Below, in pieces: positions 1 to 36,824 of a stretch of 64,000 bases of DNA. The DNA is from Lytechinus pictus (Eukaryota), in the NCBI RefSeq assembly GCF_037042905.1, contig NC_087245.1, positions 248,001 to 312,000 on the forward strand, written 5' to 3'. Within the stretch, counting starts at the first letter, position 1. Every line of letters starts with the position of its first letter. Position numbers and translations under genes: made by a program. Under the pieces are notes generated by a model. The model was not told where the DNA came from and searched no databases. It saw only the letters and a list, made by a program, of their open reading frames with translations.

Positions 1-576
1 ATTCAGCAGAGATTTAACAACGGTGAACAAGACAACAGACACCGGATGAGACTCTGAATATGGGGGCCTGTACACATTAATCAATTTAAGATGAAATTAT
101 TTGCATACAATATCATACTCGGCAAACTCAAATGATTCCTTCTGACCAGCGGCTACCTGACGAGCATCGATAGGACTTTTAAAGAGAAGACCTGTACCCC
201 CGCCACGGCGACCAGTCCTTGGTTGATGAAGACACCGATATCCAGAGGGAACAAACTCTTGCAGTACTGCAGAGTCGTTCTCAGTCAACCAAGTCTCCAT
301 AAGCGTAACTAAATCAGCTTTACTTTCGTTGACAAAGTCATTGATCGCAGTTGTTTTGTTACGAACAGAGCGTACATTGATGGAGCAAAGTTGAAGACAG
401 TCTAATTGTGATGAAGTTCTGCTTGATGTTTGCTTTGCATGTTGAAGACTATTCCTTTTCCTTCCTCCTCGAGTTCCCCGCCTGATTTTCTTGACTTGTG
501 CAACGTCTTCTGAATTCCATATGATGTTATTGCTTGGCATACATGATGTGGAAGAGGTGCGACAAAGTCTCTCCAT
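1..576 (-). mobile_element. CR1/L2-clade LINE fragment, N-terminal half of the apurinic-like endonuclease (APE) of ORF2; runs off the window start
   Basis: ORF 97..576 has APE motifs INVRSVRNK, LVTLMETWL and RRGGGTGLLFK. A stop at 97-99 indicates decay. Confidence 0.85.
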
Positions 577-616
577 AGACAGAGTTCAGTTGGAGTGTAC
601 TTATATATATAAATAG

Positions 617-3526: not shown

Positions 3527-6183
3527 TCAGTCGTTCCCCTCTTGGATGTTCAGGCCATGAGGTTGGGTGGTGCGAAGTCGTCTCATCCAGAACTTCTCTC
3601 TGCTAGTACGGACTGAGTCAGGACAGGTACCTAAAGATTCGATGCCCTGTAGCATCATGTCGGTGATGGAGTGGTTGGGGAGGTTAAAATGGCGGCCAAC
3701 TGGAGTGTCCAGCTTTGCTGTGTTGACGGTGGATCTGTGCCCGTAGAATCGTTTCTTGAGTGTGGTCTTGGTTTCCCCTATGTATTGTACCCTACAAACT
3801 CTGCAAGTGATGAGATATACAACATTAGTGGTAGTGCATGTGATGTTGCCCTTGATTTGGTGAGACAGGCTGGTAGAGTTGCTGGTGGAAGTGTCGCCCT
3901 CGTGAAGGTGTATTTCACATATGATGCACCTGTTGCTGGTGCATTTGAAGGTGCCATGCTGTATGGGAGAAGAATGGTTAGTGAGGGAGGGCACTTCAGC
4001 ACGAACAATGAGGTCCCTGAGATTCGGTGGGCGTCGGTATGCTAGAAGGGGAGTATCGGGAACGGCCTGTTGGAGACGATCAGAAGTGTGTAAAATGTGG
4101 TGGTTATCACACAGGATTTTGCGGAGAGGGGGTAGATTGGGATAGAAGGTGGTCACAAGCGGTATTTTGTCGGTAGTCTCCTTGTCACTTTTTGGTTTTA
4201 GAACTTCAGATCTAGGGAGAGAACGAACTTTGTTAATTGCCAGTTGGACTGCCGTGGCCCCTGGCACAGAGATGTTTCTGCAAATTCCTGGCATGGAAGG
4301 AAAAATCAGGGTCCTCGGAGCAGATACGGCGAAGTCTGATGGCTTGACTGTAAGCGATGCCGGTTTTGCAGTGACGGGGGTGGCAGCTGGATGAGTGGAG
4401 GTACTGGTGGGTATCTGTGGGTTTAGTGTATAGGGTAGTGGTGATACCGTTAGGTTTTTTCTGGACTGTGACATCAAGGAAGTGGGTTTCCTGTTGGGAG
4501 AAATCAGAAGTGAATTTGATGGTCCTGTGGAAGGAATTGATGTGGTCAATGAATGTATGGAGGCTATCTTCATCCCTGGTCCAGATGAAGAAAATGTCGT
4601 CTATGTAACGCCACCAAATCCATGGGCGACAGGGGGCTGAATCTAACATCTGCTGTTCCAGCTTGGTCATGAAGAGACAGGCGAATGAAGGAGCCATCCG
4701 GGTGCCCATTGCTGTACCGAATATCTGTAGGTAGTGCTTGCCCATGAATGTGAAGTTTTTTTTTGTTAGTACATGAGACATCAGAGATTTGATATCGGAT
4801 ATGGGGGGACTGGAATGGCCACTGGCGGCCAAGGCTTCACATGATGCTTGGATACCTTCGTCGTGGGGAATGCTGGTGTACAGTGAAGAAACATCGAAAG
4901 TGCCGATGATCGCAGTCTCGGGTATCTGGTCCTTGATGTCATTTAGTTTCCTGAGAAAGTCTGGAGTGTCGTGGATGTAAGAGGGTGCACGTGAGACAAG
5001 GGGCTTAATGTGGTAATCAACAAAAAGGGAGATGTTCTCTGTTGAGGAACCATTTCCTGAGAGGATGGGTCGACCGGGGTTGCCAGGTTTGTGGATCTTC
5101 GGGAGGAGATAGAAGCGGGCAGGTTTAGCATTAGTAGGGGAGAGAAATTTGTGGGCCTTCTCGGAGAGATGCTTGTGTTCTTTCATGTCATTCAGTGTCG
5201 ATTGGATCTGTAGGGAGAAATTACAAGTAGGGTCAGAATCGAGGAGTGCATAGTGAGATAGATTATTGAGATTTCATGGCTTCATCGATGTACTGCTGGT
5301 GGTCCATGACGACGACGGCTGATCCTTTGTCTGCAGGCTTGATGATGATGTCGGACCTGTTTTTGAGTGATGAGAGAGCCTGGCGTTCTTCTCGAGGAAG
5401 GTTGTCATGTGCTCTGGTGTAGAGGGTATCTGTGGAGCGAACTTGGGATGAGACAGCTTGAATGTAAGTTTCAAGGGAAGGAACTCTATTCTTGGGTGGA
5501 ATCCATGTGCTTTTCTTGTAGAAGGGCTCGGGATCAGAAGGGGGTGCATCTAAAAAGAACTCTTTGAGACGTATCCTGCGTTAGAATGTAGAGAGGTCTT
5601 GATTGAGAGCTATCTGTTCAACTTCTGGTGGCGTGGGGCAAAACTTGAGACCTTTAGAGAGAAGAGAGGTTTCTGCTTGGGAGAGAGGGGAGGATGAGAG
5701 ATTAACAACCAAATGGGGGGATGCATCATTGTTGTTGGTATGTCGTCTAAATCTGTTTGACCATTGTCGCTTCTTTGTGAGGTTGCCTATTTTCTTGTTC
5801 CTGCGTTCAGTGAGGAGAGACCTGTGTTTAGAGAGATCAGATTCAATTTCATCATTATACTGAAGCCATTGGGTTTGGGTACAGCAAGAACGTAGTTCGT
5901 CTTCCAGGCTACTGATGTCAGCTGAAAAAGAATCAAGAGAAGCAATACACTGTTCAGAGAGGATGTTAATTAGTCAAACTGAAGCTCCATGTAAGGTCTG
6001 GTTCCATCGTTTGCAAAGTTCAGGTGTGAGCGTACCGAGACCGGGAGTGCAATGAAGTTGGAGGCCTGTGGGTACAATGCGACTGAGGAAATAAAATCTG
6101 TAATTGTCCTGGTGAAAAGAGGTCTTGAGGGCCTTCAGCTTGATCTTCCTGAGCTGGTGAAATAAAGATAGATGGTTAGTCAT
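3527..6183 (-). pseudogene. Penelope-like RT plus GIY-YIG endonuclease polyprotein, disrupted by several frameshifts
   Basis: N-terminus MTNHLSLFHQLRKIKLK at ~6183. RT (4233..5186) has FYLLPKIHKPG, FDVSSLYTSIP, GTAMGTRMAP, WRYIDDIF, FLDV and YTKPTD. The endonuclease (3527..~4250) has a Cys-rich linker CTSNRCIIC and VVYLITCRVCRVQYIGET. Frame changes at ~4250, ~5200-5600 and ~5975. Confidence 0.92.
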
Positions 6184-19054: not shown

Positions 19055-19526
19055 TATATTGCAAAGTTTTGTAAATGATAAACTGCAAAATGCACACTTT
19101 TTTTTAATTTTCGTCATTCCGGTGTTGGCATCAATAACTCTTGAATTGTATATTGTGATTTCTCCTTATATCAAAGAAAGTCATGTTATAATGATCATTT
19201 TTATTTTTATATTGATTATTAAAAAGTTATTCTATTCTGGGATGTTTATTTTGCAATAAATATAGTTACTGATAACACCAGTGAAGTTTTTATATAGGTT
19301 ATTCTGTGAGTAGCTTTTTATAATGTAGCCATTTATGTTTGACATGGTGTATCAGTAATGAATAGACCTTAGTAATCACAAATAGCAAGACAAGTAATCT
19401 CGATAGATGCTCTCATGGGAGGCATGTTTGAATAATTACATTCCATTCATGTTAAGTATCTTTTTTTCGAAAGCTGTTTGTTAAGTAACATCACCTTTAT
19501 GAATGACTGATGACCCTTTCTTAGGA

Positions 19527-19697
19527 ACTATCAACACCAAGTAAAATAAATCTGGTTTATATCATTAGGGACTATCAACACCAAGTACATGTAAATTACA
19601 TCTGGTGTATATCAGCAACTATCAATACCAAGTGAAATAAATCTGGTTTATATCATTTGCAACTATCAACACCAAGTAAAATCTGGTGTATATCATT
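19527..19697. repeat. Minisatellite, about 4 copies of ~43-48 bp
   Basis: ACTATCAACACCAAGT...AATCTGGT(T/G)TATATCA repeated. Confidence 0.85.
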
Positions 19698-19859
19698 TAC
19701 TGCAAGGAAAGGTCACCATTCGTAACTAACAAACAGCAATTTTTATTTATTTTTTACTATTATGATAATTATTGATATAAAATGATATTGAGGATGATGA
19801 TAACAAGAATTCATATATTTTATTGATATTTTCTTTTTCTTCCTCCCATCCATTTCTTT

Positions 19860-33817: not shown

Positions 33818-34139
33818 GTGTGAAATAAATGGATGAAGAGAACAATGGTAGGCGTAGCTTAAATCAAGGTTCTCGATATATATATATATATATATATATA
33901 ATTGGTATGGTGTCGAAAATCTGTCTATCTGACGGTCAATCGGATCGGGGTCGCCCTAGCCACTAACCCGTCTCTGTGGTCTAGTGGTTAAGGCACCGGC
34001 GTTCAAAGCTGGGGGCCCGGGTTCGATTCCCGGCAGAGACATTTTTTCGGCATCACCAATTTTTCCAAAAGGGTAGATAGCTCTGGGGAACCTTGATTTA
34101 AGCTACACCTACCATTGTTCTCTTCATCCATTTCTTTCA

Positions 34140-34291: not shown

Positions 34292-35334
34292 CAGTGGCGT
34301 ACCGTGGGTCACGGCATTGGGGGGGGGCACCAGCAAAAATTTTGAGTCACTAAGTGAGCGCGCAAAGCGCACCCAGTTGCCAGGTATACTGACCTAATAG
34401 ACATTTTAAGGACAGTGCCATTAAACGGATATGTCTCTCACTGGTCAAATAATGCGAGCGCGAAGCGCGAGCTTAACATTTTTGATATTCAGACATAAAA
34501 AGGGACATTATAATCAATCTTTTGTAATCATGATACGTACCTGTCTCGCTACATAATGCGAGCGCGAAGCGCGAGCTGAAATTTTTGTAGATATTGACCC
34601 CAAAACAGGAAGATTTTAAGGACTATATTTTAGGAATCCATTAAGAGTATACACGTCTCACCATAGTCATCTAATGCGAGTGCCAATAAGCGCTTGCTGA
34701 TTTTGTTAGAATTCCATCTAAACATGCACATAAAGAACTTGTAATCATGATTAACATACCCATCTCACTAATCAAATCTTGCGAGCGCGAAGCCTGAGCT
34801 GAAAATTTAGGAAATTCAGACCTGAAGAGGGGCATATATAAGGCTTGTTTGTAGGAATTCACGAAGACAATACGTAGTTAACTAACCAAAATGATGCGAG
34901 CGCGAAGCGCGAGCTGAAATTTTTTTATATTCAGATTAGAAAAAGGGACATTTTAAGGACTGATTCTAGGAATTCATGGAGAGCAGACATTATTTCACCA
35001 ATCCACTACTGCGAACGTAAGCACGGACAGGAAATGTTTTATATTAAGACCTTAAAATGGGGCAATCACTTTAAGTAGTCATGAAAAAGAAGCATACTAT
35101 TGTACATAAAACAATAATAACTCGAAGTGCGAGGAAATATATTTGGCAGTTTGGTGTATATTGACTTGAAAACGGGAGGTTTTCATTATAATGAACAATA
35201 ATGTATTCTTTCCCATTTAGTTTCTCTTCCTTTCTCCCTCTTTTTCTCCTTTACCCCGTTTTTTTTTTTTTTTTTTTGGTCAGCCGATTGGGGGGGCACG
35301 TGCCCCCCCATGCCCCCCCGTAGTTACGCCACTG
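34292..35334. mobile_element. Non-autonomous hAT-like DNA transposon inserted in (TA)n
   Basis: TIRs CAGTGGCGTA / TACGCCACTG, with internal ~115-bp units containing GCGAGCGCGAAGCGCGAGCTG. Confidence 0.85.
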
Positions 35335-35354
35335 TATATATATATATATATATA

Positions 35355-35830
35355 TAGAAATAGTCTGCTTCGGCATATGGAATAAAGTAATCACAAAAGG
35401 TTTAGTAAATGCCGTGGAAATAAAATCGTAGATTTTAAAAGGAGCATAACGCTTAAAAATGAAAGGTAAAGTCACACTCTTCGTCAGTGCCCATGATGTG
35501 ACAAAAAAAAAGAGAATTCAAAATCCGTTTCTGAAACAGTCGTGAAAAACACGTCTGTTCATGGGCATACGGATTGTGAAACTTACCTTTCAAAGAAATC
35601 AATGCGCTGAAGATGGAGGAAGCGCACTGTAAAAGACGCATGCATCTAAAGACGCGTTGCCATGACTGCAAGATGACAATGGCGAATCTCCGGCTCCAAA
35701 ACAGGAAAATATGAAAAGGGCCTCACCGCCAACAGTTCAAGTTTAGCAGTAAAAAAGTACCTGAGTAAAATAGAAATAGTCTGCTTCGTTCGGCATATGG
35801 AATAAAGTAATCACAAAAGGTTTAGTAAAT
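35355..35830 (-). mobile_element. ~416-bp terminally redundant unit (retrozyme/pLTR-like) encoding a highly structured RNA
   Basis: 56-60-bp direct repeat at 35355-35410 and 35771-35830. Multiple complementary segments in 35460-35592 include hammerhead core boxes. Confidence 0.6.
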
Positions 35831-36099
35831 TCAAAAGTTGCAAAATGACACAATATTGAAAGTTACTGTTCTTTTTCCGTGGTGATGAATGAGTTTCTCA
35901 ACGGTTTCTTTTAATTGTTTTCATGCACCTTAACATCAACATTAACATGGAATCAAACACACCTCTGCACAAGCAAACACATAACAAACAAACAAACATG
36001 CATGGGTATTTCAAACCACGACTCAAACCATGTTATTTCACAGAACCATCACTACATAAACCACAACAAAACATAAAAAATGAAGAAGCAGGGGCTTGA

Positions 36100-36346: not shown

Positions 36347-36379
36347 CTCCATTGACACAGACAAAAGAATCTTGACTAT

Positions 36380-36778
36380 TTCTGCTCGTTTTGCAGCTTT
36401 TCAATTCAGACCTCATCCAACACTTTTGAATCCTGTTCTTTTCGTGATGGCATGATCATGACAAGCATGGTATCATTTAAAGAAAATTAAATGATCTTTT
36501 GAATGATATCAAATATGCATTGTGTAAAATTTGGAGTTGGGAGAAATTAATGGCCAAACTCAGATTTCCAAAACTTTTTTTTGCTCGTTTTGCAGCTTTT
36601 CAATTCAGACCTCATCCAATACTTTTTGAATCTTGCTCTTTTCGTGATGGCATGATCATAACAAGCATGGTATCATTTTAAAGAAAATTAAATGATCTTT
36701 TGAATGATGTCAAATATGCATTGTGTAAAATTGGGATATGGGAGAAATTAATGGCCAAACTCAGATTTCCTAACTTTT
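36380..36778. repeat. 199-bp tandem duplication
   Basis: TGCTCGTTTTGCAGCTTTTCAATTCAGACC at 36383 and 36582. Confidence 0.9.
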
Positions 36779-36824
36779 TATATATATATATATATATAAA
36801 GAAAAGTTGAAAATCCTATTAAAA

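Follow-up and report, generated by a model that had tools for sequence, protein, structure and literature searches.

Repeat family and insertion anatomy

The DNA analysed here, referred to as the window, comprises 64,000 nucleotides (nt) of the Lytechinus pictus genome (NCBI RefSeq assembly GCF_037042905.1, contig NC_087245.1, positions 248,001 to 312,000 of the forward strand). At window positions 35355..35830, on the minus strand, lies a single insertion of a repeat family that carries a candidate hammerhead ribozyme with non-circularly permuted sequence blocks. The insertion is ~476-477 nt long and comprises 1.14 repeat units, running from position 1 of the unit (p1) to p57 of the next. The unit itself is ~411-416 nt long with a G+C content of 0.389, and the window copy contains no long open reading frame. 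A (TA)11 microsatellite at 35335..35356 abuts the 3' end of the insertion. The first-pass annotation of this DNA had described a microsatellite inserted in the unit; the tract is present, but it is the target of the insertion, of the type used by the family, and not an insert.

Direct repeats reported at the two ends of the element were confirmed by pairwise comparison on the minus strand. The first copy, unit p1-61, is found at 35770..35830 (61 nt), and the second, which begins the partial second unit, at 35354..35410 (57 nt); they match exactly over 19 + 42 nt and differ by one 4-nt indel. Because the window copy spans 1.14 units, from p1 to p57, the "terminal repeat" is merely the overlap of a tandem copy. 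The annotation's view of the locus as a monomer-plus copy of a tandem family held when copies were sought genome-wide (812 Mb, 368 contigs; 600 candidates, 40 scored): the 476-nt stretch has at least 88 matches at 84-96% identity, and is not a single-copy chance duplication. An internal 17-mer of the unit occurs in 117 exact copies across the genome, and the family is put at ~125 units or more.

To describe the insertions, 66 arrays from 52 distinct fetched places were mapped onto the 411-nt unit of locus L006. The arrays are scattered over at least 19 contigs and range in length from 0.15 to 3.21 units. Tracts of (TA)3 or longer flank the 3' end in 54 of the 66 arrays and the 5' end in 28, and 18 arrays meet an inverted array, 5' end to 5' end. 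The 3' ends fall into two classes ~33 nt apart (p14-30, n = 36; p48-65, n = 23; other, n = 7). The 5' ends are variable and include 5'-truncated copies. The combination of fixed 3' ends with 5' ends that vary, together with the (TA)n targets and the inversions joined 5' to 5', is characteristic of target-primed reverse transcription.

This anatomy resembles that of the Naiad and Hydra families of Penelope-like elements (PLEs), which prefer (TA)n, are strongly 5' truncated, form partial tandems, and may be accompanied by an inverted, 5'-truncated neighbour and by a tail of 30-40 bp on one side (Craig et al., MBE 2021, PMC8557442). The unit family shares the (TA)n bias, 5' truncation, partial tandems and inverted neighbours, and the tail is comparable to its two 3'-end classes. 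The published elements, however, are coding and 2-4.4 kb long, whereas the unit has no open reading frame. In size, tandem form and low G+C the unit also agrees with the metazoan non-LTR retrozymes, non-coding tandems of 150-450 bp that occur as dimers to multimers, are low in G+C, have self-paired RNA and are also found alongside PLEs (Cervera & de la Pena, NAR 2020, PMC7229834). Retrozymes differ from the unit in carrying a canonical type I hammerhead and in producing abundant circular RNA (PMC7229834), whereas the motif described below has a different block order and the unit is covered at low RNA depth. The element is very probably a PLE-type non-autonomous tandem repeat, and the annotation's suggestion of a Penelope-mobilised element or retrozyme is in keeping with the PLE-like insertion anatomy.

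The hammerhead motif on the minus strand

The three strands proposed as the hammerhead core match the minus strand letter for letter at the positions given in the annotation. By direct reading, block S (strand A of the annotation) is AAUCCGU-A-UGCCCAUGA from 35575 to 35559, strand C is GAA-ACGGAUU from 35531 to 35522, and strand B is UCAUGGGCA-CUGACGA from 35496 to 35481. They lie within a candidate ribozyme domain of 133 nt (35460..35592, minus strand) that is closed by an outer stem (35592-35583 / 35469-35460).

Following the minus strand through the domain, block S (35559..35575) consists of the stem III 5' strand (35575-35569), A17 (35568) and the stem I 5' strand (35567-35559). A 23-nt linker hairpin (35536..35558; 8 of 9 positions paired, one A-A) leads from stem I to stem II. 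Block G (35522..35535) contains the stem II 3' strand UUCA (35535-35532), GAA (35531-35529) and the stem III 3' strand ACGGAUU (35528-35522). A U-rich linker of 19 nt (35503..35521), in which the length of the U-tract differs between copies, connects stem III to a further helix that ties stems I and II. Block C and this tying helix (35471..35502) begin with GUCACA (35502-35497), the stem I 3' strand (35496-35488) and CUGACGA (35487-35481); the distal part (35471..35480) contains the stem II 5' strand AGAG (35480-35477) and UGUGAC (35476-35471). The further helices named in the annotation (outer stem, GUCACA/UGUGAC and hairpin) are thus all present.

The core nucleotides are complete in the window copy: CUGACGA, GAAA, the A15.1-U16.1 pair, and A at position 17 (H17). 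With U16.1 at 35569, GAAA from 35531 and CUGACGA from 35487, all on one strand, the block order is S-G-C. Stem I has nine Watson-Crick pairs and stem III seven, and both abut the core without insertions; the tying helix has six pairs (35502-35497 with 35476-35471) and encloses block C. The predicted cut falls between A35568 and U35567, which is p254|p255 in unit numbering. A descriptor scan found no other complete hammerhead motif in the unit. The annotation had allowed for a hammerhead assembled between adjacent monomers. A canonical hammerhead spanning two monomers would have to span loops of ~370 nt, and a single unit suffices for the compact S-G-C fold; we set that part of the proposal aside.

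Comparison with type-SGC hammerheads

To our knowledge, the only permutations known for any natural RNA before 2023 were circular. Hammerheads can be divided into a site block (S), a GAAA block (G) and a CUGAnGA block (C), and the classical types I, II and III have the orders CGS, GSC and SCG (PMC10085705). In metatranscriptomes, 583 natural sequences of type SGC were found, of which five cut themselves where predicted (Eckert, Friedrich, Weinberg & Weinberg, NAR 2023, PMC10085705). The same source describes two type-CSG sequences, which cleaved, and one of type GCS, which is doubtful. The A-C-B order noted in the annotation is a genuine non-circular permutation, but it is that of type SGC, which was described and shown to cleave in vitro in 2023 (PMC10085705), and the topology as such therefore has a precedent.

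Type SGC requires four helices, namely stems I, II and III plus one that binds the far sides of I and II; the linker between stems I and II is typically 3 nt, and 0-44 nt separate the fourth helix from stem III (PMC10085705). GUCACA/UGUGAC directly adjoins the stem I strand and is found four nt after A9, which identifies it as the fourth helix of type SGC. The unit and the published type have in common the block order, the core, stems I and III, the far-side helix and the direct joining of stems I and II, and the connection from the fourth helix to stem III, U-rich and 19 nt long here (35521-35503), falls within the published range. They differ in that the published examples have a linker of ~3 nt and a proper stem II, whereas the unit has a 23-nt hairpin in the linker and a stem II of an A-A mismatch plus three pairs. 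The outer closing stem is also an extra feature of the unit. Finally, the published examples belong to hairpin-ribozyme circular RNAs from metatranscriptomes, whereas the present candidate lies in an animal genomic repeat.

The position of the motif in the element is like that of the minimal type I hammerheads of PLEs, which also lie ~60-180 nt before the element's 3' end; those ribozymes differ in their C-G-S order and in a stem III that is very short and often palindromic.

Chance expectation

To estimate how often such a motif arises by chance, a descriptor that accepts the three blocks in any order within 200 nt was run over the whole window and over dinucleotide-preserving shuffles of it. 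The only match in the window with seven pairs in stem III and nine in stem I is the candidate motif. Stems I and III totalling at least 16 pairs without G-U, as in the candidate, occurred in 0 of 1656 shuffled windows, and with at most one G-U in 1 of 1656. A helix of at least six pairs around the CUGANGA block was present in 37 of 668 background hits. The full constellation is rare for one window, roughly 1e-5. It is nevertheless attainable when very many windows are scanned, and for this reason the context of the motif matters.

A second descriptor match, at 19507-19651 (plus strand), is at chance level and was rejected. It sits in a minisatellite of ~44 nt (window 19507-19700, plus strand) that yields two weak matches by chance (C-G-S with 7+7 pairs and C-S-G with 7+5).

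Conservation among copies

In an alignment of 68 copies (52 distinct), which are ~3% diverged, all boxes are kept in 62 of the 68, and the boxes together with helices I, III and the tying helix in 50. Among the 65 copies in which H17 could be scored it is A in 58, U in seven and G in none. A frequent C/U variant in stem I keeps the pairing, as C-G or U-G; the majority form of the family has U there and a G in the outer stem.

Array 5' ends and the predicted cut

The 5' starts of the 66 arrays are not spread evenly along the unit. The densest 11-nt window is p251-261, with eight starts, and it includes the predicted cut. Among the 24 arrays of at least 540 nt, a set that was not selected through the core region, six begin within p254-264 (binomial P 3e-5 relative to uniformly spread starts) and 15 within p242-298. 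Arrays are most often ~580-620 nt (1.4 units) long, which takes them from close to the cut as far as the 3' end. Eight exact junctions of the form (AT)n-(A)TGAAYAGACGTG were found genome-wide, and array L028 begins at p254/255. This pattern fits a template RNA whose 5' end was made by a ribozyme, and we infer as much with the caution that an internal start site or an inherited (TA)n junction would produce a similar one.

The unit in RNA reads

Parts of the unit occur in 19 sequencing runs from eight studies, as small contig sets that we guess to be RNA. In three raw RNA-seq runs the unit is covered at a depth of 3-50 in both mate orientations, the libraries looking unstranded. In all three, sequence 3' of the predicted cut has two to five times the depth of that 5' of it. 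One inverted joint in the reads ends exactly at 35567 (eight reads, six starts, one run). Joints that go back by 398 positions were seen in two of the three runs and are as compatible with tandem transcripts as with circles. The annotation had further called splice-like signals in the unit. The reads contain no such joint, and the GUAAGU among these signals is private to a few copies, the majority having GUGAGU; we discount them.

Two further features of the reads were recorded. One run contains a family variant in which 50 nt at 35464-35515 are replaced by 19 other letters (eight reads, six starts); the lost segment includes CUGACGA and the 3' strand of stem I. Depth rises abruptly to ~220 per mate orientation where the insertion has its 5' edge (35828-35860 and beyond), and more than 300 reads per run pass from 35827 into sequence absent at this locus, possibly that of a different expressed repeat or of an exon that has been interrupted.

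Permuted hammerheads in Naiad elements

The Naiad families, according to the source that described them, do not have canonical hammerheads, and eight were flagged "HHR_half_core", defined as GAAA on either side of CUGANGA at 35-50 nt (PMC8557442); that paper does not read the half cores as permuted hammerheads. We read by eye the 3' ends of seven Naiad consensus records in File_S5 of the same publication. Naiad_Hpol, Naiad-3_Nbra, Naiad_Parc and Naiad_Smim appear to carry complete type-CSG hammerheads, each with a helix enclosing block C. In Naiad_Hpol, stem II is GCCAC/GTGGC, stem III GGTTCGT/ACGAACC, H17 T and stem I TGAAG/CTTCA, the enclosing helix has 12 bp, and an AAA linker joins stem I to stem II. 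Naiad-3_Nbra has stem II GTCC/GGAC, stem III GCTCGT/ACGAGC, H17 C, stem I TAAGA/TCTTA and an enclosing helix of 9 bp. The corresponding elements of Naiad_Parc are GGTCC/GGACC, a stem III of 12 pairs (one G-T), H17 C, TACGAC/GTCGTA and 7 bp, and those of Naiad_Smim are GGCCC/GGGCC, ACACGT/ACGTGT, H17 C, a stem I of six pairs (one G-T) and 8 bp.

Two cephalopod lineages instead show the S-G-C order, with stems I and III and no clear stem II. Naiad_Ovul and the near-identical record preceding it have ATGGT/ACCAT, H = A and CTGCCC/GGGCAG; Naiad_Esco has a stem III of seven pairs, H = T and TTGTTT/AAACAA. Reading by eye did not resolve the motif in Naiad-3_Dst. From one lineage to the next the stem sequences are entirely different, yet the boxes and the geometry of the junction are kept, as covariation would have it.

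A search of the literature returned nothing linking types SGC or CSG, or permuted hammerheads in general, to PLEs or retrozymes; the term "type-SGC" turned up in a single paper, and the accessible portion of a 2026 preprint on animal retrozymes and PLEs does not mention permuted ribozymes. The presence of a type-SGC hammerhead in an animal retroelement, and the likely identity of the Naiad "half cores" as permuted hammerheads, both appear to be new. We advance, as a tentative proposal with nearly even prospects, that the "missing" ribozymes of PLEs that target (TA)n are hammerheads of non-circularly permuted type, SGC in the present family and the cephalopod Naiads and CSG in the nematode and spider Naiads, the cut setting the 5' end of the template and thus giving rise to partial tandems. 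Naiads would then not lack hammerheads, and the permuted types would have a large eukaryotic home.

Search for a mobilising partner

Candidate partners were sought through the Pfam GIY-YIG model, which has 59 matches in the genome; 12 places, a small sample, were fetched. No Naiad was seen among them, which in a sample of this size is not evidence of absence. A 10-mer, GGCATTTACT, common to the unit and to Hydra-2_Ajap was considered and rejected as too short for homology.

One PLE family with a C-terminal endonuclease (loci L067, L072 and L073; G000 C4, C14) has a 3' end that abuts (TA)n and is unrelated to the unit. A CTGATGA, a GGGC/GCCC hairpin, a GAAA and an AGCT palindrome lie about 80 nt before its end and together would form a minimal type-I-like hammerhead; both Rfam and our own descriptor scan missed this motif. 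The window itself contains a PLE fragment at 3527-5273 (minus strand), in which RVT_1 (E 4.5e-9) is followed by a C-terminal GIY-YIG (E 1.6e-4). It too is unrelated to the unit, and its C-terminus matches the family at L068 and L069.

Interpretation

The motif most likely evolved as a type-SGC hammerhead, the odds that it cleaves or recently did being somewhat better than even, and the unit is probably a retrozyme-like element that contains a genuine ribozyme of this type. We favour this reading because of the architectural match to type SGC, the rarity of the constellation in shuffled sequence, the PLE-like context, the clustering of 5' ends, the retention of the motif among copies and the Naiad sequences. 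The element would be a non-autonomous, non-coding, retrozyme-like unit of ~411 nt, copied into (TA)n by the reverse transcriptase and GIY-YIG endonuclease of a PLE. Its minus-strand RNA is predicted to fold into the 133-nt domain, with stems I and III, a short stem II, the 6-bp tying helix and the outer stem, and to cut between A35568 and U35567, freeing unit-length RNA from tandem transcripts. The cut would set the 5' end of the template for reverse transcription, and the junction may then be trimmed to the first AT able to pair with the (TA)n target before the enzyme jumps to a second template. Observed are the motif, the repeat family with its mode of insertion, and the concentration of 5' ends; that the RNA cleaves, that it circularises or that templates are jumped, and which enzyme mobilises it are the parts of this scheme that we infer.

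A number of observations weigh against a functional type-SGC ribozyme. Stem II, flagged as weak by the annotation, consists of A-A, G-C, A-U and G-U (35480-35477 with 35532-35535) and so pairs at three of four positions, and in the published SGC-3 ribozyme disruption of stem II abolished cleavage (PMC10085705). Among Hydra PLE hammerheads, a non-Watson-Crick 10.1-11.1 position and a stem II of 3-4 bp are frequent (supplement S2, PMC8557442), and by analogy the defect may be tolerable here. Covariation of stems I and III, proposed in the annotation as a check, was not seen: over the 68 aligned copies none of 40 pairs had changed on both sides, and the structure scored no better than shuffles. 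Per-site diversity is 0.032 in the domain and 0.030 in the rest of the unit. A family only ~3% diverged is too young for the covariation and diversity comparisons to be informative. When G-U pairs are allowed, stems I and III totalling at least 16 pairs are not rare, with 23 hits in 1682 shuffled windows and 32 in 1656 (0.014-0.019).

Rfam scans of the window, of a 1.6-kb segment and of a 181-nt domain gave no hammerhead at the gathering score or at E<=10. The hammerhead models (RF00008, RF00163 and their clan) are not known to cover any but the circular block orders. A genome-wide run of RF00163 and RF00008, which scored ~70 of over 115,000 candidates and recovered its controls nowhere, was uninformative. 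The two strands fold equally well (z -6.30 for plus, -4.85 for minus), the nested optimum of -45.8 kcal/mol is an extended hairpin that pairs the ACG of the core, and the ribozyme fold, at ~-29.7 plus -11.7 to -14.7 for stem I, is roughly equal to this competing hairpin.

The remaining objections concern cleavage products and the partner. No pile-up of read ends at 35567/35568 was found in the three raw RNA-seq runs, where depth falls gradually; at a depth of only 3-50 its lack is not decisive. The hot spot of array 5' ends, p259-261, lies 5-6 nt 3' of the predicted cut, and there are others at p349-359 (six starts, the next densest) and p298 (three). An autonomous partner with reverse transcriptase and GIY-YIG was not found: in all 12 sampled copies the endonuclease is C-terminal, and at the 3' end none resembles the unit or has sequence similarity to it.

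The alternative that fares best is that the motif is a look-alike or relic: a PLE-mobilised repeat whose boxes are a decayed ribozyme, or a coincidence in an imperfect inverted repeat, and whose RNA does not cleave. The 5' and 3' arms of the domain do form one long imperfect palindrome (35-nt arms) that folds equally well from both strands, and the weak stem II, the lack of covariation and of extra conservation, and the missing read-end pile-up all agree with it. Naiad PLEs, moreover, are reported to proliferate without canonical hammerheads (PMC8557442). Coincidence or decay must, on the other hand, account for ten core nucleotides standing at the junctions of three perfect helices, an arrangement found in none of 1656 shuffles when G-U is disallowed, for the recurrence of the permuted layout, with other stems, in published consensus sequences of (TA)n-targeting PLEs (by eye), and for the clustering of 5' ends beside the predicted cut. 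We regard this alternative as less likely than a genuine ribozyme.

Another source of the clustered 5' ends might be transcription that starts inside the unit, or descent from a master copy in which the junction of (TA)n with p260 was co-transcribed and then reused; the ribozyme, if active, would in that case not define the copies. That the hot spot is at p259-261 rather than p255, that starts there always merge with an AT of the unit, and that each of the three raw runs has greater RNA depth 3' of the site would suit such an origin. Copies starting at p260/261, however, have unrelated flanks and carry both stem I variants (GCUCA and GCCCA), and the inverted RNA joint and array L028 begin at p254/255 itself; we consider this explanation improbable. 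A plain minisatellite or DNA-level palindrome propagated without an RNA intermediate would explain the tandem arrays and the folding of both strands, but is very hard to reconcile with dispersal on at least 19 contigs, fixed 3' and variable 5' ends, (TA)n targets, 5'-to-5' inversions, the short contigs from the runs of eight studies and the coverage in three raw RNA runs.

The non-circular hammerhead types have so far been known from environmental RNA circles whose hosts are unknown (PMC10085705). If the type-SGC motif of the unit cleaves, a permuted ribozyme gains an identified animal host and genetic element as well as a plausible role. Such a result would also overturn the published claim that the most abundant PLE clade of invertebrates spreads without hammerheads (PMC8557442).

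Neighbouring features of the window

On the minus strand, the (TA)11 tract is followed at 35278-35334 by CAGTGGCGTAAC..., then a G7/C7 palindrome and then A19, a segment that resembles the terminal repeat of a TA-inserting DNA transposon. Similar ends, CAGTG(C/G)CGT..., abut (TA)n at L015, L029 and L044. A tandem repeat of 201 bp (2.0 copies, 93% matches) occupies 36379-36779. A transfer RNA gene (60.9 bits) lies at 33970-34041 on the plus strand, with (AC)n and (AT)n microsatellites on its flanks. Near the start of the window, an open frame at 97-585 (minus strand) matches Exo_endo_phos (E 1.8e-7) and is probably an endonuclease fragment of a long interspersed nuclear element.

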